DNA of 42,447 nucleotides, taken from IMG/VR virus record IMGVR_UViG_3300045988_116402; one strand, written 5' to 3'. This stretch comes from a virus. Below, in pieces: positions 3,603-38,155 of this stretch. The notes below the pieces were generated by a model. It made no database searches, was not told the DNA's origin, and saw only the letters and a program-made list of their open reading frames with translations. Each line of letters starts with the position of its first letter. Position 1 is the first letter of the stretch. Position numbers and translations under genes: made by a program.

Positions 3603-5573
3603 TTACTTCTTATACGACCTTACTTCGCTTGAAGTATCGTATGTAGGCATATACCAGTATTTATTGTTTGCTTTTACATAATCCCAAGCATTATCTATAT
3701 AACTTTCGCCATAGCCTGCTGCTTCCCATAATGACATCATTTTATAAGCAGCATCTTCACCACTTTTGTTATAAGCCTTTTCTAATTTTTCTATCATTGA
3801 AGTGGTAACCTTAGAGCCTTTTTTAGAACTGCCTGAAGAACTTGATCTTCTTCCAGAGCTGCCGTTAGCTTTTTTTGAGTTTGTAAGACTTCTTCCCTGA
3901 TTTGTAAGTAACTGACCTTCATATTTAGCCTGATTATATTTTGCTTCTAAATCTCTCTGCTGTTTTAAGTATGTCATATCCATTCCTGTTAATTCACCGA
4001 GTAAATCATAATCACCATATTTATATGCCATTTCGATTTGCTGGTTCATTGCTTCGTTCTGTGCTTGGTCGATAGCCGCTAATCGATTAGCTTCGTCCTG
4101 TGCTTTCTGATAGGCAAATTGCTGATCCCACTGATTTTTAGCAAGGGTAAACTCCGCAAGCCATTTATTATAGCTGTTCTGTGCATCTGCCGCCTGCATC
4201 TGTAATGACAGTGAGTTTTGAGCAAGCTGCGAATACATATTAGCTTTTTCCATATTGCCCTCTGCAAGTGCATTAGCTTCTGAAATCTTAAGCTGATTAA
4301 CCGCATTGGTAAACGTATTTTCCGCACTGTTATAGTTTGACATATAATCACTCTTAAGTCCTGCGAGTGTGCTTTCTGCAACACCACCATTAATGCCCAT
4401 TGCTTGCATTTGTGACGGTGCATTATTTAATGACAGCATATAATTGATATAGTTTGCTCTCTGCTGCTTCTCGTTATCGTTTTCGAGTAATCTCTGCTGT
4501 TCTCTGTACTGTGATGATAACGCCGCATTTCGTTCCGCTACTGCATCTTCATAGTTCGCATATATATCGTCCATCTGGTTTCGTATATCGTCCTTTGTAA
4601 GACCGACATAACCATTTGTATTTGCTCCATACTGTGAGTAAATATCATTTAAATTAGGTGTGGTAGGGTTATTAGGGTCTGCACTACCGCCCATTAACTC
4701 ACCCTGTCCTGCAAACTGTAAGCCCTTGTTATAAGCGTTCTGCATTCCGTTTCCGTTATATGCTATATCTGCATATGGATTTTTATAATCCATACCATCA
4801 CGACCGCTTAAAAAGCCTAACTGCATATTAGTCTGATCGTACATATTACCAAACTGATTATCTGCTGTGTATCGTCCACCATCTGTGCCGTCACCAAAGC
4901 CGGAATATAAACCATCACCTGTCGAAGTACGTCCATAGTTATAACCGTTTCCGGTAAGCGAACCGGTGCCGTAGGTTGACGAATGAGCGAGCTGTGAGTT
5001 AGGTGCTACCTGTCCACTTGCTATTGCATCATGTAAAGCCTGATTATAGTTCGTTGCGTTTGAATATGTGGTCTTATAAGTACCGTCCGGCTGTTCCCAT
5101 GTGAAAGCTGTCTGACGGGTTGTATAATAGCCTGTCGGGTCTGCATAGCCTTTTGTGCCATCATAATCTATACTCTGCTGTAAATTCCTTATCTGTGAAT
5201 CAGAAGGATTATATGAGAACCTATTGATTGCATTTCCACCGTCCTGACCTATTACATAATTATCCTGTGAAATATTACTCTTTGTGCCATTAAAATTTCC
5301 TGTGTTCTTGTAATTAGAGAAATCGTTATCGGTTAAACCTCTATAATTAAGGTTTTCGCCTTTTATCTTTGCATTACGTTCTGCATTAAGCTGGTTTATT
5401 ACGTCCTGACTTGCTCCACTGGATATTGCTTTCTGTATCTCGGAAGCATAGTCTTTGTTTTTGTCATATGTCGGAATATTTGATATTCCGCTACTGTTCG
5501 ATCTGCCGGAACTTGTATTTGTAGTTCTATTTTTACGCTGGTCAGCCGTTACTGTAACAGTTTGTCCTGCCAT
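3603..5573 (-). CDS. Large structural/internal virion protein candidate (G/N/Y/S-rich N-terminal half, Q/A-rich coiled-coil C-terminal half)
   Basis: 656-aa ORF with an AAGGGGGTG RBS, tightly coupled downstream of the endolysin and upstream of the giant ORF. No family recognised. Confidence 0.5.
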   Translation of the reverse strand: MAGQTVTVTADQRKNRTTNTSSGRSNSSGISNIPTYDKNKDYASEIQKAISSGASQDVINQLNAERNAKIKGENLNYRGLTDNDFSNYKNTGNFNGTKSNISQDNYVIGQDGGNAINRFSYNPSDSQIRNLQQSIDYDGTKGYADPTGYYTTRQTAFTWEQPDGTYKTTYSNATNYNQALHDAIASGQVAPNSQLAHSSTYGTGSLTGNGYNYGRTSTGDGLYSGFGDGTDGGRYTADNQFGNMYDQTNMQLGFLSGRDGMDYKNPYADIAYNGNGMQNAYNKGLQFAGQGELMGGSADPNNPTTPNLNDIYSQYGANTNGYVGLTKDDIRNQMDDIYANYEDAVAERNAALSSQYREQQRLLENDNEKQQRANYINYMLSLNNAPSQMQAMGINGGVAESTLAGLKSDYMSNYNSAENTFTNAVNQLKISEANALAEGNMEKANMYSQLAQNSLSLQMQAADAQNSYNKWLAEFTLAKNQWDQQFAYQKAQDEANRLAAIDQAQNEAMNQQIEMAYKYGDYDLLGELTGMDMTYLKQQRDLEAKYNQAKYEGQLLTNQGRSLTNSKKANGSSGRRSSSSGSSKKGSKVTTSMIEKLEKAYNKSGEDAAYKMMSLWEAAGYGESYIDNAWDYVKANNKYWYMPTYDTSSEVRSYKK

Positions 5574-13479: not shown

Positions 13480-14487
13480 TTATGCTAATGCTGTACCTGT
13501 AAGACCTTCGCCGCAAATAGCAATACCTCTCCAGTTGTTGAAACCTGCACCGAATCTTGCTCTGCCTTTCCATACGTTAGCATCTGTATTAGGGTCAATA
13601 TCTGATTTAACAGTAAGTCCAAGTCTGTCTACCCAAGGTAAAGCCATATAGTCCTGATTAAACTTACTGTCAAGCATAATGAAATAAGGTTTATCACTTG
13701 TGCCAAGTCCTTTAGGGAGATAAGGCCATACAAGCACATTCCAAAGTCCTACCTGAAAGTTAATCGCATTGTTAGATGATGTTGCGTCAAGCTCTGAACC
13801 GATAGCCGCAAATACAGCTCTCTTTAATGCACCGTTATTAGGGATAATGATTGTATCAGGTGCAACATTAAGAAGATTGCCGTCATCGTCTGTAAACATC
13901 TGCATTTTCTCCTGCATAGTGTCCATAACAGACTGTGAGAATGCACCGGTAAAGATGTTACTCTGTGCTTTTGTACCCTTAGTAATTGAAGGGTGCGACT
14001 GTGAGAAAAGTGCTACACCGTCAGCTGTTGTTGTGTCGTATTTCTTGCCTGAAATAGTTGTTGTTGTACCGATACCACCGGCAAGCATTGAAGCTGCGAA
14101 CTTTTCTCTCGTTCTGTTAAACGATGTTGCGAAGATGTTAGCCTTTGACTTAATCTTGCCATACTTAGCATCTTCAAGCATTTCCGCAGTTACTTCGAAT
14201 TTGTTCTTCCATGTAGTAGGTGTAATGGTCTTTTCATAACCTTCCTGCATTGATGTAACAGGATATGCACCGTTTTCTCCTACATCTTTAAAGTCTCCGA
14301 GTGATGTTTCCTGTGAATACTTCTCGGCAAAATTAGATGACTTGTCCATATAAAAAATCTTATCAATCATGGACATTTCCTTGAATGCTTCTACGTTTTC
14401 TTCGATAACTGCTTTGATGGGATCCTGTGAACGACCAAAAACGCTATCGTTTACACCGGAACCTTCCGAAAAAATAATTCCTGCCAT
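13480..14487 (-). CDS. Major capsid protein
   Basis: 335-aa ORF following the scaffold and decoration-like genes, with a strong RBS. Size and position are typical of an HK97-fold MCP. Confidence 0.65.
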   Translation of the reverse strand: MAGIIFSEGSGVNDSVFGRSQDPIKAVIEENVEAFKEMSMIDKIFYMDKSSNFAEKYSQETSLGDFKDVGENGAYPVTSMQEGYEKTITPTTWKNKFEVTAEMLEDAKYGKIKSKANIFATSFNRTREKFAASMLAGGIGTTTTISGKKYDTTTADGVALFSQSHPSITKGTKAQSNIFTGAFSQSVMDTMQEKMQMFTDDDGNLLNVAPDTIIIPNNGALKRAVFAAIGSELDATSSNNAINFQVGLWNVLVWPYLPKGLGTSDKPYFIMLDSKFNQDYMALPWVDRLGLTVKSDIDPNTDANVWKGRARFGAGFNNWRGIAICGEGLTGTALA

Positions 14488-18110: not shown

Positions 18111-19796
18111 TCAAAACGGATTGCCCCAACGCTTAATTAATTCTTTTTTCTGCTCCGGTGTAGCTGCGTAGTAATCGTCATACTGGTCTGCTTCCCAGCG
18201 TGTTTTCTTCTGTGTCTTTCGTGTTTCTGTCATACTCTGCTGCTCTCTGATGCCGTATGTTATAGCAAGCCCCATAACAAGGTCGTCGTGTTCGCCTTCT
18301 TCCGCTTGCGGCTTACCTTTTATGCGGACAAATGATAGCATTTCGCGCAAAGTATCAACGTCATTAATAAGCTGTATCTCGTCCCTTGCTATCTGTACCA
18401 GATTAGCGATTATAACAGGTCTTGTTGCTGATGTAGTGCGGAAACCATACGATTTCTTAATCGCTCCCGTGAACGTGTCCGGCTGCTCTCTTACATACTG
18501 GCGATTATATCCCAATCTCGCTACCTCTCTAATCGGATATGTTGAGAAGTTAGCCTCTAAGCCTACAAGAGCAGTATTATAGTATTGTCCTAAGCAATAT
18601 ACTTGCCTTGAATACTCGTCCTCGTCGATATTATCATCATGTAATACTGCTACTTGCTCACCGGTTACATTATCTATTACATGAGCCGTAAAATAGTCGC
18701 TACCTTCTCCGGCTGTATCTCCACCCAGAACATACGGTCTTGACTTCTCCGGCTCTCGGAATATCTTGATATTGCCTCTGTCGTTGTCAATCCAACGGGC
18801 ATTAGTTATATATTGCCCGTCATAATCATATGCAAAATAACCACGTTTCAGCGGCTTACAGCCCTGTAAATCATTAATACGCTTAATAATAATAGCTGTA
18901 TCAAATACACAAGCTCCTGTTGCAATAAAGGCTTCTTCCGGTGTCGATGGATACTCTTGCTTGAATAAATTGATGTCGCCACCACAGTTATTTTTTATGC
19001 ACCATCTACGCCATGACAACTGCTCATTAGTAAGGTTATGTCTTGCCTTAAGCTCTTCTTCTTCCGGCGTAAGCTGGAAACCATCATAAAATCGGCTATA
19101 TTCCGCAAGCTCAAACCATGGGAAGAATACCGGAACAAAATCATTCTCACCGGCGACCGCAGAATCCCACAAACGCTTGAAATCATCATATCCGTTAGCT
19201 GTACTCTCTATAATAACCATTGTTCCGGGCTGTGCAGGTACAGACTGTAAAAGACCGTTAAGTGTTGCCATCTTATCCCCAGTCCAGAACGCGAACTCAG
19301 ATATATGTACATTACTGAGAGTATCAGAACGTCCTACACCGTCACCGCCTGCCGTTGCACATTTGATACGGCTATTAAGTCCAATGCCGCCCTCACTCTT
19401 AGCTGGGCTGTCAAATATAATCTCTCTTGCATTGCTCGCTTTTCTTGCCGGTTTAAGCATATCCGGCAGGTAAGAATAGAACAGCTTGGACATATTAAAC
19501 AAGTTAGTTGTGGCATCGTCTTTATGCGCTATTATCATACTGCTGATGTTAGGTTTGACCGCCGTCCTGTGAAATATTAATGCCTCCGTCAGCGTCGAGA
19601 ATCCCATCTGTCGAGCCTTAAGAATGATTAATCGTATCGGTTTACCTTGTCGTGCCTCATTACCAATTATCTTATATAATCGCTCTTGTGGCTCGTTGAG
19701 CCGGAGCGGAACAATCCTATTATCCTTAGTCCTAATGTGCAAAAATCGGCTTATATACTCTCTTGCATTGTATATATTAATCATGTTATCAGTCAT
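18111..19796 (-). CDS. terL: Terminase large subunit
   Basis: 561 aa. The ATPase-type segment ILKARQMGFSTLTEALIF and the nuclease-half acidic motifs are typical of Terminase_6-like TerL. Overlaps terS. Confidence 0.8.
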   Translation of the reverse strand: MTDNMINIYNAREYISRFLHIRTKDNRIVPLRLNEPQERLYKIIGNEARQGKPIRLIILKARQMGFSTLTEALIFHRTAVKPNISSMIIAHKDDATTNLFNMSKLFYSYLPDMLKPARKASNAREIIFDSPAKSEGGIGLNSRIKCATAGGDGVGRSDTLSNVHISEFAFWTGDKMATLNGLLQSVPAQPGTMVIIESTANGYDDFKRLWDSAVAGENDFVPVFFPWFELAEYSRFYDGFQLTPEEEELKARHNLTNEQLSWRRWCIKNNCGGDINLFKQEYPSTPEEAFIATGACVFDTAIIIKRINDLQGCKPLKRGYFAYDYDGQYITNARWIDNDRGNIKIFREPEKSRPYVLGGDTAGEGSDYFTAHVIDNVTGEQVAVLHDDNIDEDEYSRQVYCLGQYYNTALVGLEANFSTYPIREVARLGYNRQYVREQPDTFTGAIKKSYGFRTTSATRPVIIANLVQIARDEIQLINDVDTLREMLSFVRIKGKPQAEEGEHDDLVMGLAITYGIREQQSMTETRKTQKKTRWEADQYDDYYAATPEQKKELIKRWGNPF

Positions 19797-20307
19797 AATT
19801 ATAATCGCCGTCCTGCTTGCTTAAGAACTGCTCATATGTAACCGTTGCCGTAATCTCCTGCTTATCAGTAAGCCAACCGGCTATTTTTGCATATGTTTCC
19901 AACGCCTTAAGCTTATCATGCAGCCTTATAGTCATGCCGTACTTGTCTTGCCTAATGGACATGATAGCCGCCTGCTTGCTCGGATCTATCTCTGACGTGG
20001 GTATATACTTAAGCTTACCGTTCTCGTCGACATCTGCATAATCACAAATGTTAGAAAAACCGACCGCCGCCAGCTCTCTCAATACATCGTCTTGCGTTAT
20101 CTGTAGCCGCTTGTTTCGCTCCGTTTGCAACTCCTTGATGTAGTCTTGTATGTCCTTACGTTTGAGCAAGTTACGGGCATTACTGTTGCACCTGCCTTTG
20201 TCTTCCTCGCCATATGCGGCACCGTATGCCCTCGTTCCGTTATAGTCAATTATGTATTCTTGACAGAACAACCGTTCTTTTATTGCTTTCTTTTCTGACG
20301 TTCTCAT
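19789..20307 (-). CDS. terS: Terminase small subunit
   Basis: 172 aa. N-terminus KERLFCQEYIIDYNGTRAYGAAYG matches the Terminase_2 pattern F-x-x-E-Y-x-x-D-x-N-x-T-x-A. Directly upstream of terL. Confidence 0.7.
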   Translation of the reverse strand: MRTSEKKAIKERLFCQEYIIDYNGTRAYGAAYGEEDKGRCNSNARNLLKRKDIQDYIKELQTERNKRLQITQDDVLRELAAVGFSNICDYADVDENGKLKYIPTSEIDPSKQAAIMSIRQDKYGMTIRLHDKLKALETYAKIAGWLTDKQEITATVTYEQFLSKQDGDYNYD

Positions 20308-20951: not shown

Positions 20952-21033
20952 TCTATGCTTACATAGACACATTGTACAAATCTATGCTTGCATATTTAGT
21001 AATTGTGTCTATTGCAATCTATGAAAGCATAGA
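20952..21033. promoter_or_regulatory. Three operator-like palindromes TCTATG-N4-CATAGA
   Basis: Perfect copies at 20952-20967 (tctatgcttacataga) and 21018-21033 (tctatgaaagcataga), an imperfect copy at 20981-20996, and an extra half-site CATAGA at 21087-21092. Confidence 0.6.
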
Positions 21034-21040
21034 TTATAAT
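21012..21040 (+). promoter_or_regulatory. Sigma-A-type promoter of the accessory cassette (TTGCAA-17 bp-TATAAT)
   Basis: TTGCAA at 21012-21017, a 17-nt spacer containing operator 21018-21033, and TATAAT at 21035-21040. Confidence 0.6.
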
Positions 21041-21141
21041 AGGCTCATAAGTTAAGGAAAGTTGAAAAAACGAGAGAAAAAGAAAGCATAGAAGAGAAAA
21101 TAAGAGAAAACATCAAAAATCAAAAGAAAGGAAGAAAAAAC

Positions 21142-21309
21142 ATGAAAAACTACAAAGAACATCACACATCATTAACAAGAGGCTACATCAGAGTTAATCA
21201 GGAAGTTAAAGAAGAGTATAACGGCAGATTCGGCAAGGGCTACATAATCAAAAGACACAATTCTAACAGCACACAGTATTGTTACATTACTTATTACGTA
21301 GAAGCTTGA
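21142..21309 (+). CDS. Small protein (55 aa), first gene of the accessory cassette
   Basis: Manual translation MKNYKEHHTSLTRGYIRVNQEVKEEYNGRFGKGYIIKRHNSNSTQYCYITYYVEA. Below the track cut-off; the RBS is weak and purine-rich. Confidence 0.35.
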   Translation: MKNYKEHHTSLTRGYIRVNQEVKEEYNGRFGKGYIIKRHNSNSTQYCYITYYVEA

Positions 21310-21323
21310 GAGGAGGAATAATC

Positions 21324-21809
21324 ATGAAATATTTTGAAGGAATTACAACGATCGATGAACTTAAGAAAGTTTATAGAAAGCTCTGCCAGCTTAACCACCC
21401 GGACAACGGCGGCAACGTAACTATCATGGCAGAAATCAATAACGAGTACACAAAACTTTTTAACATCTTAAAAAATCAGCACAACACAAAAGCGGAAGCA
21501 GACACAACAGGCAACACAAGACCTATAAACGAATGTCCGGAAGAATACATCAACATCATATCGGAGCTTGTAACACTTAAGGGCTTAACCGTTGAGCTGT
21601 GCGGCTCTTGGATATGGATAAGCGGAGACACAAGAGAGCATAAAGACAAACTTAAATCAATCGGCTGCCGCTGGGCGAGCAAGAAAAAGATGTGGTATTG
21701 GAGAAGTGAAGCAGATGCAGTTAAAAGCCGTAAAACCAAATCAATGGATTATATCCGCAATAAATACGGCTCAACATCTTACAGCACATCAGATTTATTA
21801 CTTGCATAA
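21324..21809 (+). CDS. J-domain (DnaJ-like) protein with a C-terminal W-rich domain
   Basis: Start moved to the ATG after the GAGAGGAGGA RBS. ELKKVYRKLCQLNHPDNGG carries the HPD signature. C-terminus reads GSWIWISGDTREHKDKLKSIGCRWASKKKMWYW. Confidence 0.8.
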   Translation: MKYFEGITTIDELKKVYRKLCQLNHPDNGGNVTIMAEINNEYTKLFNILKNQHNTKAEADTTGNTRPINECPEEYINIISELVTLKGLTVELCGSWIWISGDTREHKDKLKSIGCRWASKKKMWYWRSEADAVKSRKTKSMDYIRNKYGSTSYSTSDLLLA

Positions 21810-21813
21810 TATA

Positions 21814-21869
21814 ATAGCCGCACTGATGAGCCGTAATGACGGCGAAACCCCTCCGGGGTCTGCGGATAG
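21814..21869 (+). ncRNA. Type I hammerhead self-cleaving ribozyme
   Basis: Stem I CCGCA (21818-22) pairs with UGCGG (21861-65). Core CUGAUGA (21823-29). Stem II GCCGU-AAUG-ACGGC (21830-43). GAA (21844-46). Stem III A-CCCC-UCC-GGGG-U (21847-59). Cleavage-site C at 21860. All invariant core positions are present. Confidence 0.85.
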
Positions 21870-21880
21870 GAGGCGAAGCA

Positions 21881-22303
21881 ATGAAAGAGGAATGTATAAG
21901 AATATACGCTAATATGTACAATTATGAGGCTGTAGCAGACATTGACACTATTAAAAAGTATGACGACTACGCCAAAAATGATATAATACATTTGCAGACA
22001 GCTATCAACCGTATGCAGGAATACCGCTCTAAACTGTACGAGCACGCTCAAAAATTAGCAACGGCAGAATATACGCTGCAAGTATCAATTAAGCGTGAGA
22101 AGCGTTATTACCGAGATAATAAGGTATACTACTATATCAATATTGCAAAGGTCTTTCCGGGTATCGGAACAGAAACAATATTAGCGGAAACCTATCCCGG
22201 AACAGAACGCAACAAAGCAATAGTAAGATACAACGAATTATGTAAGCAATACCCAAAAGCGGAACACATCAAAAGTATTGACAAGGCACGCTGGGAGAAA
22301 TAA
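21881..22303 (+). CDS. Hypothetical protein (140 aa) downstream of the ribozyme
   Basis: Start at the ATG after the AGGAGG RBS (21868-73). Helical N-terminus; no family recognised. Confidence 0.6.
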   Translation: MKEECIRIYANMYNYEAVADIDTIKKYDDYAKNDIIHLQTAINRMQEYRSKLYEHAQKLATAEYTLQVSIKREKRYYRDNKVYYYINIAKVFPGIGTETILAETYPGTERNKAIVRYNELCKQYPKAEHIKSIDKARWEK

Positions 22304-22344
22304 TATTAAGATTAAGGAATAACAATAAAAAAGGAGACGATTAA

Positions 22345-22578
22345 ATGAAAGATTGGCAATTTGAAAACGGCATTGAAGTATACGAAAAACACTGGGATAA
22401 AGACTTGCATTGCTTAGAAGTGTACAACAGGACCGAATACCTCGGCACTGTATATCCCGGGGATATTGAGAATATGCAATATTGTTTTAAACTATTAGAT
22501 AGCGGCAAAGACCCCATTAGTGATGGCTGGGAAGATGGTTGCGGAAACGCTTGTACATTAGATGGCTGGGGAGAATAA
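22345..22578 (+). CDS. Small acidic protein (77 aa) with C-terminal DGWEDGCGNACTLDGWGE motif
   Basis: ORF with an AAAGGAGA RBS. No family recognised. Confidence 0.55.
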   Translation: MKDWQFENGIEVYEKHWDKDLHCLEVYNRTEYLGTVYPGDIENMQYCFKLLDSGKDPISDGWEDGCGNACTLDGWGE

Positions 22579-22584
22579 CCTTAA

Positions 22585-22611
22585 GGGGGGCAATATCGCC
22601 CCCTATTTTTT
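22585..22611 (+). terminator. Intrinsic terminator between the 77-aa gene and the Cas8c-like gene
   Basis: GGGGGC-aatatc-GCCCCC hairpin followed by TATTTTTT. Confidence 0.65.
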
Positions 22612-22626
22612 GGAGGAATAAGTAAA

Positions 22627-23403
22627 ATGAATTTCGATAAAGTTTTAGATTTACACGATTTGCTTAACCTTGAAGAGATTATCCCTGTTGCTCACACTCG
22701 CATACTTCCGCACATCGGTGTATTATTATCCGATAACGGAAATTTTATCGGTGCAATGATTATCAACAATGAGCGTTGTTCTATTCCTTGTACAATCGAA
22801 TCAGAAAGCCGAACAAGCGGCATTGCACCACACATAATACATGATAAGATGTTATATATATGCGGCAATTACCCAAAATACGAACAACACCACAACACCT
22901 ATATGCAACAGCTATCCAATTATATAAGCAATGTTGACGATAAGCTCGCAAAAGCAGTTTTTATTTACCTGCAAAAAGGTACTTTAAATTTTGATATAAA
23001 AAATTTATTGTCACAACTGCATGTGAAAGAAGAGAAAGCGAATATAATATTTTTAACGCCTAACATTGACGATACAATAAACAAAAAATGGACTGAATAC
23101 TATGTTAATTCGCTTCCTAAGAACGGCATTTGCAGTTTAACAGGTGTACCTGATTACATACCATCGACATACCCGAGATACATTCGCAGTCATATTGACT
23201 TAGCAAGATTATTTGTAGGCAAACAAAACGATCTTGATTCGATGCCCGCATTGCTTCCCGGATATATAGCATCACAAAAAATAATCCATACTTTACAATT
23301 TGTTTGCTTTGAGGGTGAAAACTGGGCTTATAATGTAATGCGTAATCATTACAACGAATTACCCGACGATTTGAAAACAAAGGTTGATAATTATTTTAAC
23401 TGA
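22627..23403 (+). CDS. Cas8c/Csd1 N-terminal-domain-like protein (truncated type I-C large-subunit homologue)
   Basis: 258 aa. Motifs IIPVAHT, IPCTIESESRTSGIAPHIIHDKMLYICGNY, IYLQKGTL, CSLTGVP...YPRYIRSHIDLARLF and ASQKIIHTLQF appear in the order I recall for the first ~300 aa of Firmicutes Cas8c/Csd1 proteins (about 600 aa in full). Not verified by any search. Confidence 0.55.
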   Translation: MNFDKVLDLHDLLNLEEIIPVAHTRILPHIGVLLSDNGNFIGAMIINNERCSIPCTIESESRTSGIAPHIIHDKMLYICGNYPKYEQHHNTYMQQLSNYISNVDDKLAKAVFIYLQKGTLNFDIKNLLSQLHVKEEKANIIFLTPNIDDTINKKWTEYYVNSLPKNGICSLTGVPDYIPSTYPRYIRSHIDLARLFVGKQNDLDSMPALLPGYIASQKIIHTLQFVCFEGENWAYNVMRNHYNELPDDLKTKVDNYFN

Positions 23404-23414
23404 AAATTAAATAA

Positions 23415-23440
23415 GCCCCGGTTTCCCGGGGCATTTTTTA
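23415..23440. terminator. Bidirectional intrinsic terminator between convergent genes
   Basis: GCCCCGG-tttc-CCGGGGC hairpin with a T-run on the plus strand (ATTTTTTAT) and a T-rich tract on the minus strand. Confidence 0.75.
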
Positions 23441-23830
23441 TAGTAAATTTAACGCTTTTGAATGTAGTTGGCGTACATATGACACATTATATTTAAGCTC
23501 TGCGGCAATCTCTTTGTAGCTCTTATACTCGACATGGCGTTTATATAATATCTCAACCAGTATAGGATTTTTAAGCTCATGTATTTTATCAATTACAATG
23601 TGTCTTGTAATTATCAATTCCGCTTTTTTTCTGCTGATTTCTGTTTCTATGTCTACAACATTTGCGACATCCTCAGCCAATTTATCACTTGTTGATGCCT
23701 GTACTCTTTCGCCGACTTTCGCCGTTATGCTTTCCGCATCTTCTCTAAGCCTAACGAGTTCTTTTTCCTTCTGCTGTATTTGCACATCTAATAGCCGGAG
23801 CTGATTAAGATAAGTATTCGCATTCTTCAT
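23438..23830 (-). CDS. Late-gene transcriptional regulator candidate (DUF1492 / sigma-70 region-4-like)
   Basis: The track ORF begins at a TTG; the ATG at 23830 follows a GGTAGGTGA RBS. The C-terminus ILYKRHVEYKSYKEIAAELKYNVSYVRQLHSKAL is a region-4-type HTH. Last gene of the early operon. Confidence 0.55.
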   Translation of the reverse strand: MKNANTYLNQLRLLDVQIQQKEKELVRLREDAESITAKVGERVQASTSDKLAEDVANVVDIETEISRKKAELIITRHIVIDKIHELKNPILVEILYKRHVEYKSYKEIAAELKYNVSYVRQLHSKALNLL

Positions 23831-23834
23831 GTTA

Positions 23835-24038
23835 TCACCTACCCTCAATCATTTTTAACAGTTTTGTCATGTCATAAAAATTACATGGGTCTAATCCGGT
23901 GCTTTCCTTTATCTTTTTTCTGTGCCATGCAACAGCGTTATAGCTATAAGATATGCTTTTAGCCGCTTTTGTCATGTTTAAATTACTTTCGGCTAATGCT
24001 CTTATAAATACAATATCATCTGTTCTTATTCCCGGCAT
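23835..24038 (-). CDS. Small HTH DNA-binding protein
   Basis: 67 aa. NMTKAAKSISYSYNAVAWHRKKIKESTG is HTH-like. Confidence 0.45.
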   Translation of the reverse strand: MPGIRTDDIVFIRALAESNLNMTKAAKSISYSYNAVAWHRKKIKESTGLDPCNFYDMTKLLKMIEGR

Positions 24039-35683: not shown

Positions 35684-35712
35684 TTGATTTTTGTTTCATG
35701 ATGATATACAAT
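35684..35712 (+). promoter_or_regulatory. Repressor (maintenance) promoter TTGATT-17 bp-TACAAT
   Basis: Hexamers at 35684-89 and 35707-12. The promoter sits inside the 5' part of the track ORF, which argues for the downstream TTG start. Confidence 0.55.
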
Positions 35713-35739
35713 ATAAATAAGAAAAGAGGTGATGCTAAA

Positions 35740-36123
35740 TTGAAGGACAGATTAAAACAATTAAGAAAAACATTAGGCTTAACTCAACAGGCATTTGCTG
35801 ATAAATTGGGAGTAAAACGTAATACAGTCGGACAATGGGAATGTGGTATAAATCCCTTAACTGATCAGACAATTTTCTCTATTTGTCGTGAATTTGATGT
35901 AAACAAAGAGTGGCTTTGCACCGGAGAGGGCGAAATGTTTGTTATTAGAAGCGATGAGGAGGAGATAGCTGCATTTTTAGGTGATGTACTTTCCGAGGAA
36001 GGCGAAACATACAAAAAACAGCTTATTCTGGCTCTTGCAAATTTAAGTGATGAAGGTTGGAGAGGTATAAAAGAGTTTCTTGATGCACTTATTGCAGAAA
36101 AAAAGGAAAGAGGAGAGCTTTAA
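35740..36123 (+). CDS. CI-like repressor (XRE-family HTH)
   Basis: A TTG start at 35740 follows an AAAGAGGTGA RBS and gives (M)KDRLKQLRKTLGLTQQAFADKLGVKRNTVGQWECG, a canonical XRE HTH. Divergent from the early promoter. Confidence 0.8.
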   Translation: MKDRLKQLRKTLGLTQQAFADKLGVKRNTVGQWECGINPLTDQTIFSICREFDVNKEWLCTGEGEMFVIRSDEEEIAAFLGDVLSEEGETYKKQLILALANLSDEGWRGIKEFLDALIAEKKERGEL

Positions 36124-36952: not shown

Positions 36953-37135
36953 CATTAACCATACTGCCAACCTCGGCAATATGGTCACAAAATAAAAAAA
37001 TCCTCCTGTATTAGCAGTACAGAAGGATTAAGGAATAGCGGTTATGTGAAACCACTACTACAAAGAACACATTTAGTATATCACATGACCGCTTTAATTT
37101 CTACTCTTTTTTTAGAATTAAGGAGGTCTTTTTTT

Positions 37136-38155
37136 ATGAAGCGATTACCTAACGGAATGGGTGCTGTTGTAAACCTTGGAAACGGCAGACGTAAACCATA
37201 TGCCGCTCGTATTAGAGCCGGAATAAGTGCGAAAGGAGGAACTATATATAAATACCTCGGATATTATTCGACCAAACAGGAGGCTTTACAGGCTTTAACG
37301 GACTATAACAAAAATCCGTATGATGTTACAGCCGCAGAAGCTACCGTTGCGGATATGTGGGAAGTATTTAAACAAAGAAGATTTAAGGAAATATCAAAGA
37401 GCGGATGCAATATATATACTGCTGCGTATAAGCATTTAAAGCCGTTGCATAACACTCCTATAAAGGACATAAAAACATATCAGATACAAAGCCTGATTGA
37501 CAACTTAGATAGAAGCTGGCAGTCAAAGAGCCATGTTCAAACCTTGATGAACCAACTCTTCAACATTGCAATGGAACTTGATATTGCAACAAAAAACTAT
37601 GCAACATTTGTCAAGATTGGAGAGAAACCGCAATCAACTAAACATAAGATGTTTACACAGGAAGAAATAGACAGGCTGTTTAAAGCTGTGTTTGCGGAAG
37701 AGTTTGCTGATACGGTGTTAATACTTATTTATACCGGAATGCGACCTTCTGAATTGCTTAACGTGCGTATATCTGATGTTCATATTGAGGACAGATACAT
37801 GGTCGGAGGAATGAAAACCAAAGCCGGCAAAGATAGAGTAATACCGATCAACGACAAGGTATATCCTTTTATTCTTAAGAGATACAATACCGACAACAAT
37901 TTTTTGATTGAGCATAACGGTCTTGGTGTTTCTTATCCACAATATAAAAAGGCTTTTTTAGAGCTTATGGCAAGACTGGAAATGGAACATTTTCCCCATG
38001 ATGGCAGACATACGTTTGCTTCACTCGCCAATACCGCAGGAGTAAATGAAACCGCCGTCAAGCTAATAATGGGACATACTTCACAGGATATTACCGAGAG
38101 AGTATACACTCACAAAGCAATCTCCGAATTGTTGACAGCGGTTAATCAAATTTAA
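37136..38155 (+). CDS. int: Tyrosine recombinase (phage integrase)
   Basis: Start at the ATG after the AAGGAGG RBS. Catalytic-region motifs YTGMRPSEL, HDGRHTFAS and GHTSQDITERVYTH (R...HxxR...H...Y). The N-terminus is arm-binding-type. Confidence 0.9.
   Translation: MKRLPNGMGAVVNLGNGRRKPYAARIRAGISAKGGTIYKYLGYYSTKQEALQALTDYNKNPYDVTAAEATVADMWEVFKQRRFKEISKSGCNIYTAAYKHLKPLHNTPIKDIKTYQIQSLIDNLDRSWQSKSHVQTLMNQLFNIAMELDIATKNYATFVKIGEKPQSTKHKMFTQEEIDRLFKAVFAEEFADTVLILIYTGMRPSELLNVRISDVHIEDRYMVGGMKTKAGKDRVIPINDKVYPFILKRYNTDNNFLIEHNGLGVSYPQYKKAFLELMARLEMEHFPHDGRHTFASLANTAGVNETAVKLIMGHTSQDITERVYTHKAISELLTAVNQI

Follow-up and report, generated by a model that had tools for sequence, protein, structure and literature searches.

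The IMG/VR record IMGVR_UViG_3300045988_116402 is a virus sequence of 42,447 nt, and the window analyzed here is this entire stretch, with positions counted from its first letter. Its gene content is that of a temperate tailed phage of roughly 42 kb, and nearly all of its genes are carried by the minus strand. The element under study, a hammerhead ribozyme motif, lies inside a 2.3-kb island of plus-strand genes bordered by the terminase genes and by a sigma-like gene, in a cassette with the order ORF55, J-domain gene, hammerhead, ORF140 and ORF77. It is located between the stop codon of the J-domain gene (TAA, 21807-09) and the start codon of ORF140 (ATG, 21881). A preliminary description made from the sequence alone had called it a complete type I hammerhead. 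All the coordinates given there agree with the sequence to the base, and the identification holds and is strengthened by the comparative evidence below. The 71-nt spacer, the 20-nt leader that a cut after 21860 would leave to ORF140 and the intact AGGAGG ribosome-binding site were likewise confirmed.

Read 5' to 3' on the plus strand, positions 21818-21865 consist of CCGCA, CUGAUGA, GCCGU-AAUG-ACGGC, GAA, A-CCCC-UCC-GGGG-U, C and UGCGG. Stems I, II and III have five perfect base pairs each, and the pairs adjacent to the core (A21822-U21861, G21830-C21843 and A21847-U21859) are all canonical. All 13 invariant positions are present, with C21860 as H17, in agreement with the core criteria of Perreault 2011 (PLoS Comput Biol 7:e1002031, PMC3088659), which allow no mispair beside the core and no multiple mispairs in short stems. 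Stem I is open and stems II and III are closed by loops, giving the type I order of 5' strand of stem I, core, stem II, GAA, stem III, C17 and 3' strand of stem I. The extension of stem I by a G.A mismatch and two base pairs, proposed in the preliminary description, can be read directly as G21817.A21866, A21816-U21867 and U21815-A21868. When a 66-nt RNA was folded in isolation, the minimum free energy (MFE) structure and the centroid were identical and corresponded exactly to the hammerhead three-way junction. The folding energy of this RNA is unremarkable given its base composition (z-score -0.8).

The same cassette was found on three IMG/VR contigs of 22-43 kb (L001/L008, L002/L009 and L003/L010). 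The most divergent of them, L003, shows 14 differences from the window over the final 70 nt of the J-domain gene, 3 over the 48 nt of the hammerhead and none over the 23 nt of the flanks. The changes are U21837 to G in loop II and, in stem III, a C-to-U substitution and a 1-nt deletion, by which CCCC-UCC-GGGG becomes CCC-UUCG-GGG; the apical pair is lost and a CCC/GGG helix around a UUCG loop is kept. In L002 the change in stem III is confined to the loop. The non-coding hammerhead is conserved better than the adjoining coding sequence and its changes respect the structure. Among L001-L003 the changes fall in loops and in one apical base of stem III, and the support from covariation is at the level of the family. 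These comparisons also bear on two candidate features that were rejected. The ATG at 21836 is part of loop II, and L003 has AAG in its place; this change destroys the codon, and therefore ORF140 starts at 21881. Masking of AGGAGG until cleavage by CCUCC 21850-54, in stem III and its loop, was discarded on finding the motif lost in L002 (CCUCA) and L003 (CCUUCG).

At the family level, two IMG/VR patterns anchored on stem I (fixed core, first two pairs of stem III and CCGC/GCGG stem I) matched 47 and at least 120 loci, with 122 distinct sequences. The segments left unconstrained were almost always perfect hairpins of unrelated sequence. Canonical pairs occupied 81-98% of the positions of stems II and III, compared with 39-63% when the partners were shuffled, with at least four pair types per position; 92 different sequences of stem II and 99 of stem III entered the comparison. 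A third IMG/VR pattern left stem I unconstrained; among the matches listed, 43 had good stems II and III and 42 of these were type I. In these 42 stem I was 4-7 bp long and different in every sequence, pairs 1-4 were canonical in 42/42, and at least four pair types occurred. Together the three scans, all of them restrictive, brought the number of similarly built type I hammerheads in phages to more than 200, and covariation in the family supports each of the three helices. The element of the window adds one member to this large, already described phage hammerhead group.

Chance was evaluated with 400 Markov-random windows of the same dinucleotide statistics (34 Mb scanned). Four motifs in them resembled a hammerhead and had stems of 3 bp or longer; none reached 5/5/5 bp. 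A hammerhead with 5/5/5 bp is expected analytically 2.2e-5 times per window, in line with the preliminary view that a chance occurrence is very unlikely. A resemblance without function at the RNA level would fit the best Rfam E-value, only 0.12 at whole-window scale, and the fold-energy z-scores of -0.8 and -0.3, although such z-scores are uninformative for a G+C-rich motif of 48 nt. This explanation is effectively refuted by the rarity of comparable motifs in random sequence, by conservation above that of the adjoining coding sequence and by a large covarying family at equivalent positions. A search of both strands of the window found no second hammerhead motif, and neither another ribozyme of any class nor a RAGATH RNA was found in it.

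The element is probably a true self-cleaving ribozyme of the type I hammerhead class that is maintained by selection, and its predicted cut would uncouple the J-domain and ORF140 messages. In hammerheads, in-line attack by the 2'-OH of C17 leaves 2',3'-cyclic phosphate and 5'-OH ends. The scan of the plus strand gave no terminator-like site between 21040 and 22585; the J-domain gene and ORF140 are probably co-transcribed, since the first terminator-like hairpin past the hammerhead is that at 22585-22604. Transcription from the promoter-like site at 21012-40 would yield a single RNA of the cassette, and once the polymerase has passed 21865 the 48-nt three-way junction is predicted to fold, probably with help from the G.A mismatch and A-U pairing that extend stem I and act against the short loop II, as their conservation suggests. 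The 2'-OH of C21860 would then attack the 21860/21861 phosphodiester, as in the chemistry of the class. Because the topology is type I, the body of the ribozyme would stay on the J-domain message as a structured 3' end: the upstream product would carry the J-domain cistron and end in the two G+C-rich ribozyme hairpins with a 2',3'-cyclic phosphate. The downstream product would begin with the 5'-OH of U21861, with AGGAGG 7 nt and the ORF140 start codon 20 nt further on, and is predicted to be unstructured around the ribosome-binding site. The two messages would afterwards decay and be translated independently. The same uncoupling hypothesis was made in the preliminary description and had been put forward by Perreault 2011 (PMC3088659) and by Weinberg, Weinberg and Hammann 2019 (PMC6765202).

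Several points weigh against this reading. In the whole window no Rfam 15 family reached its gathering score; with permissive thresholds the element scored 23.8 bits with Hammerhead_HH9 (RF02275; gathering score 52) and 27.4 bits with RAGATH-1-hammerhead (RF03152; gathering score 56.3). The preliminary description had taken a covariance-model score below the gathering threshold as a refutation, and formally the scores do lie below it, but we judge this test invalid here because the Rfam hammerhead models at gathering threshold also detected 0/20 sister type I hammerheads from other phages. The hammerheads in L050, L125 and L214 were likewise missed by Rfam. The element aligns correctly to positions 13-60 of the HH9 model and to the entire RAGATH-1-hammerhead model. 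It shares the core and the helix order with HH9 (clan CL00010, which includes Hammerhead_1 and Hammerhead_II) but is without the HH9 distal stem I and loop features, and it differs from RAGATH-1-hammerhead in having neither the 5' hairpin nor the very short stem II. Since its scores are sub-threshold, as are those of 20/20 sisters, the element is assigned to no specific Rfam family. A large clade of type I hammerheads in phages thus escapes the hammerhead models that Rfam now holds, and because these models missed every member tested, phage annotation pipelines undercount ribozymes.

A further reservation concerns the covariance model R1, built from 12 members from other phages with the window's own group excluded. 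The window element reached 69.6 bits (E about 2e-15, model positions 1-69), but the seeds had been retrieved with a window-derived pattern, which by construction gives them the window's stem I and core, and this score is supportive, not independent. As a general detector R1 was rejected as too narrow, type B hammerheads in L125 and L050 reaching only 15-19 bits, and the family was delimited by the pattern scans and by counts of base pairs. The stability of the downstream product has also to be considered. Cleavage might destabilize the ORF140 mRNA instead of protecting it, since RNase J1 of Firmicutes can attack RNAs with a 5'-OH end, for which glmS is the precedent; a ribosome-binding site near the 5' end can, on the other hand, protect a message. 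The two remaining points, an alternative fold and the activity to be expected at physiological Mg2+, are taken up after Table 1.

Table 1. Features of the hammerhead, its cassette and the surrounding phage genome
Feature	Position	Strand	Basis or remark
Capsid gene	13480-14487		
Small terminase gene	19789-20307		
Promoter-like site TTGCAA-17-TATAAT	21012-21040	+	consensus scan alone; could drive the plus-strand cassette
J-domain protein gene, 161 aa	21324-21809	+	HPD motif; C-terminal ELCGSWIW... domain; phrog_15863
Whole type I hammerhead with distal stem I extension	21814-21869	+	direct reading, MFE fold, R1 model score
Stem I extension, 5' half (U-A-G)	21815-21817	+	putative role in a tertiary contact
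Stem I, 5' strand	21818-21822	+	pairs with 21861-65
Catalytic core C3-U4-G5-A6-U7-G8-A9	21823-21829	+	fits the Perreault 2011 consensus; invariant in L001-L003
Stem II with G10.1-C11.1 (loop AAUG, 21835-38)	21830-21843	+	direct reading, fold
Core G12-A13-A14	21844-21846	+	direct reading
Stem III, A15.1-U16.1 and CCCC/GGGG (loop UCC)	21847-21859	+	direct reading, fold
Cleavage site, C17	21860 (scissile bond 21860/21861)	+	predicted from the hammerhead consensus (H17 after U16.1)
Stem I, 3' strand	21861-21865	+	would open the 3' product (5 nt)
Stem I extension, 3' half (A-U-A)	21866-21873	+	overlaps the AGGAGG ribosome-binding site (21868-73)
ORF140, 140 aa	21881-22303	+	function unassigned by profiles
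Terminator-like hairpin after ORF 22345-22578	22585-22604	+	first one 3' of the hammerhead
Bidirectional terminator-like hairpin	23415-23432		in the island
Sigma-70 region 4 gene	23438-23848	-	borders the island
HTH repressor-like gene	35698-36123		
Tyrosine integrase gene	37046-38155		

When the RNA was folded in a 131-nt context the MFE structure contained no hammerhead; instead CAUCAG 21788-93, near the end of the J-domain coding sequence, paired with CUGAUG of the core (21823-21828). This structure has an ensemble frequency of 0.006, the centroid retains the hammerhead, and the CAUCAG segment is partly lost in L003 (G21792 to U), which weakens the pairing; the alternative helix is probably incidental. 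The spacing of the hammerhead relative to the flanking genes was compared across the family. In 177 members the upstream open reading frame ends 0-5 nt before the hammerhead or stops at the UGA of CUGAUGA, the core UGA serving as the stop codon in 28/154 cases, and the next start codon is mostly 28-45 nt past the hammerhead. The window conforms to this arrangement: the stop is 8 nt before and the start 15 nt after the hammerhead, and the leader is unusually short. Because the stop codon is 8 nt upstream, a terminating ribosome must transiently unfold the ribozyme (stem I). The ribozyme could be conditional, its cleavage being modulated by terminating ribosomes that melt stem I and the core or by the CAUCAG/CUGAUG helix, in which case the cut would report J-domain translation or Mg2+. 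Regulated cleavage of phage hammerheads was raised by Perreault 2011 (PMC3088659), and the placement of the stop codons in the window and in the family, as well as the 131-nt MFE structure, would agree with it. We consider it unlikely, given the low ensemble frequency of the helix and its weakening in L003. Moreover, packing against stop codons may be mere genome compaction, and the five unrelated folds found at the same boundary (described below) favor plain constitutive cutting (PMC6765202).

In hammerheads, fast cleavage at low Mg2+ is made possible by a tertiary contact between stems I and II. A pseudoknot between loop II and the 3' tail is a common tertiary contact in phage hammerheads (PMC3088659). 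Among the family members with a long loop II, 66% had an uninterrupted run of four or more Watson-Crick pairs joining loop II to the 14 nt after stem I, compared with 21% when the flanks were permuted. The window belongs to a sub-family with a short loop II (AAUG, AAGG, UAAA or GGAA) and no such pseudoknot. In this sub-family AG 5' of stem I and AU 3' of it are kept in at least seven independent lineages whose neighbor genes are unrelated, and an A at +1 after stem I was nearly universal among 136 phage type I hammerheads. The pairs G(-1).A(+1) and A(-2)-U(+2) may accordingly be regarded as a putative tertiary-contact element of the short-loop sub-family. The CCGC that frequently occurs shortly past stem I was also considered as half of a GCGG-loop-CCGC hairpin in the 3' product; in most members it fits the pseudoknot of loop II with the 3' tail better, and it is absent in the window. 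Because stem I is 5 bp long and the pseudoknot is absent, activity at physiological Mg2+ is not assured.

The element could then be an inactive or very slow hammerhead-shaped structure, serving as a structured 3' end or RNase-processing module or surviving as a recently inherited relic, with no cleavage at cellular Mg2+. Its minimal look, with an open 5-bp stem I and a 4-nt loop II, the missing pseudoknot and the sub-threshold Rfam scores agree with this explanation, and some predicted hammerheads failed in vitro in the work of Perreault 2011 (PMC3088659). On the other hand, a stabilizer hairpin would have no need of the 13 invariant unpaired core nucleotides, which all relatives and more than 200 family members have kept intact; the invariant G(-1) and A(+1) with their A-U flanks in at least seven lineages suggest a dedicated tertiary contact. 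An inactive element is for these reasons improbable, and an active ribozyme remains the preferred interpretation. The window's stem II and loop, GCCGU-AAUG-ACGGC, also occur identically, with an 8-bp stem III, in unrelated phages of 65-125 kb. RAGATH-4, -16 and -36 RNAs (86-152 bits) were observed within about 1-2 kb of these identical-stem-II hammerheads in L133, L134, L143, L154, L155 and L165.

The genes next to the sister hammerheads are diverse. The upstream proteins formed 75 clusters among 122 hammerheads, and an association exclusive to the J-domain gene was rejected on this basis. The annotated upstream genes comprise Lar restriction alleviation (6), amidoligase (5), ArdC-N, an ArdC-type zincin peptidase, S-adenosylmethionine (SAM) lyase, DNA methylase and antitoxins, and downstream are found YodL (11), DUF932 (5) and many HTH proteins. 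Such genes are typical of the early and accessory regions of phages and other mobile elements. Paralogous type I hammerheads were observed in L251, which belongs to the same contig as L050 (780-839, 3157-3215 and 4084-4142), and in L224 (695-3341); such contigs hold three or four in a stretch of 3-4 kb, and a stop codon immediately precedes each of them. Every transcription unit of L050 is preceded by a repeat in which a terminator hairpin overlaps a TTGACA...TATAGT promoter.

The occurrence of three or four hammerheads within a few kb in relatives such as L251 and L224 would fit a use of the cyclic-phosphate and 5'-OH ends for RNA circularization or trans-ligation, as in retrozymes and viroid-like RNAs. 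The type I topology, which leaves the catalytic body with the cyclic-phosphate end (PMC3088659), would also suit such a function. The window contains a single ribozyme and therefore no excisable unit, and Perreault 2011 sought spliced or circular products of clustered prophage hammerheads and saw none (PMC3088659); this explanation is highly improbable.

The J-domain gene itself marks a recurrent ribozyme boundary. Its product matched Pfam DnaJ with E=8.5e-4 and 19.8 bits, under the curated cutoff of 27.8, and PHROG phrog_15863 with 3.6e-52, and HPD was invariant in an alignment of 16 family members. Relatives were sampled at 45 IMG/VR and 80 GTDB loci, most of them from metagenome-assembled genomes of gut Clostridia, and in our best explanation the phage with the hammerhead cassette is a temperate tailed one that infects gut Clostridia. 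In L050 (one of three on the contig), L125 and L214 a type I hammerhead comes directly after the stop codon of the J-domain gene. Other loci carry different ribozymes above the Rfam gathering score: a Twister-P5 begins 1 nt past the J-domain stop in L025 and another is present in L023, a pistol lies beside the J-domain gene in L047, and a Hammerhead_II is located just 5' of it in L038 and L043. L063, a 3-kb Clostridia contig, contains three twister-sisters on the plus strand (727-810, 1354-1438 and 2539-2623; 75-80 bits, gathering score 34), two of which bracket the J-domain gene at 871-1302. Five ribozyme classes (hammerhead I, hammerhead II, twister, twister-sister and pistol) thus alternate at the J-domain boundary, an enrichment that is qualitative. 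Since five classes occupy the same type of boundary, the cut itself appears to be selected and not a particular fold. An association specific to the downstream gene was rejected, as the genes following the J-domain-linked ribozymes are mutually unrelated. The phrog_15863 family, compact and widespread, is a clean comparative system for asking why phages self-cleave at gene boundaries.

Two further loci of this family are noted as separate observations. In L415 (MW202738.1, 1833-7264), a distant environmental podovirus-like phage, the local arrangement matches that of the window: the large and small terminase genes share one strand and are followed by a divergent cluster whose first gene is a J-domain gene of the family, and no ribozyme at the Rfam gathering score was detected there. 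In L083, a contig of an Acetatifactor metagenome-assembled genome, two SAM riboswitch aptamers on the minus strand (1253-1342 and 4295-4382) flank a J-domain-family gene; they are unrelated to the hammerhead.

Hammerheads between prophage cistrons have been on record since 2011, for each of the three types. Perreault 2011 described type I, II and III hammerheads flanking prophage genes and showed that prophage hammerheads cleave polycistronic RNAs of about 2 kb in vitro (PMC3088659), and type II hammerheads beside phage-like genes are active in vivo (PMC8782182). The element described here has in common with the former the core, the covarying helices and the site between co-oriented (pro)phage genes. 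There ardA is flanked by hammerheads, and here Lar, ArdC and SAM lyase genes are found beside the sister elements. Many relatives use the pseudoknot of that work, whereas the sub-family of the window is without it and has the G.A and A-U extension of stem I instead.

Different ribozyme classes are known to share gene neighborhoods (PMC6765202; PMC10085705). For the twister, twister-sister, pistol, hatchet and RAGATH neighborhoods (Roth 2014; Weinberg 2015/2017, via PMC6765202 and PMC10085705) the same swapping of classes is described, and here it takes place at phrog_15863. The strongest associations in the literature are with Mu-like phage genes (PMC10085705). RAGATH-4, -16 and -36 adjoin sister hammerheads, and none of them occurs in the window.

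The hammerhead may also be viewed as an interchangeable cutting module, that is, a natural insulator at the junctions of early, accessory and anti-defense cassettes, a possibility that we regard as doubtful. Such an interpretation would explain the substitution of one fold by another, the placement between stop codon and ribosome-binding site and the concentration in hypervariable islands. If it were true, the ribosome-binding region and the decay of each cistron would be independent of whichever gene had been recombined upstream, and the cassettes concerned would include those for J-domain protein, Lar, ArdC, SAM lyase, YodL and DUF932, with a truncated Cas8c homologue nearby in the present case. 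The engineered insulator RiboJ (Lou et al. 2012) is reportedly a type III sTRSV hammerhead with an added hairpin, placed at the 5' end of the transcript. Both it and the window element are upstream of a ribosome-binding site and would trim upstream RNA and leave a short, defined 5'-OH leader. The element of the window differs in being natural, of type I and located between cistrons, and nearly the whole ribozyme would stay on the upstream fragment.

The plus-strand island proved hypervariable. Comparison of 21142-23403 with L004:2838-4100 showed that the related phages of about 42 kb (L004-L007) retain the 55-aa first open reading frame and carry other cargo. Neither the J-domain gene nor the hammerhead is present in them, and of ORF140 a C-terminal remnant persists without the N-terminal half. 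A blastn search of GenBank phages with 21100-22400 gave no matches, and ORF140 had none in Pfam, PHROG or PADLOC.

Two genes downstream of the hammerhead, positions 22627-23403 of the plus strand encode a 258-aa protein similar to the N-terminal approximately 190 residues of Cas8c/Csd1 (Pfam PF09709, 7.5e-16; PADLOC Cas8c, 1.2e-25, profile positions 14-198 of 537). A tblastn search of GenBank phages with this truncated homologue gave no matches. The gene is enclosed by its own terminator-like hairpins in the accessory island. By analogy with AcrIB4, which is a homologue of the C-terminal domain of Cas8b (bioRxiv 10.1101/2023.06.24.545427), this protein is a candidate anti-CRISPR of Cas origin that would act against type I-C systems. 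The preliminary description had placed the hammerhead in a putative anti-defense operon. The truncated Cas8c homologue in the island and the anti-restriction genes beside sister hammerheads lend some support to this designation, which stays putative. The presence of the hammerhead in a hypervariable island together with a truncated Cas8c homologue links the question of the ribozyme to that of anti-defense gene expression.

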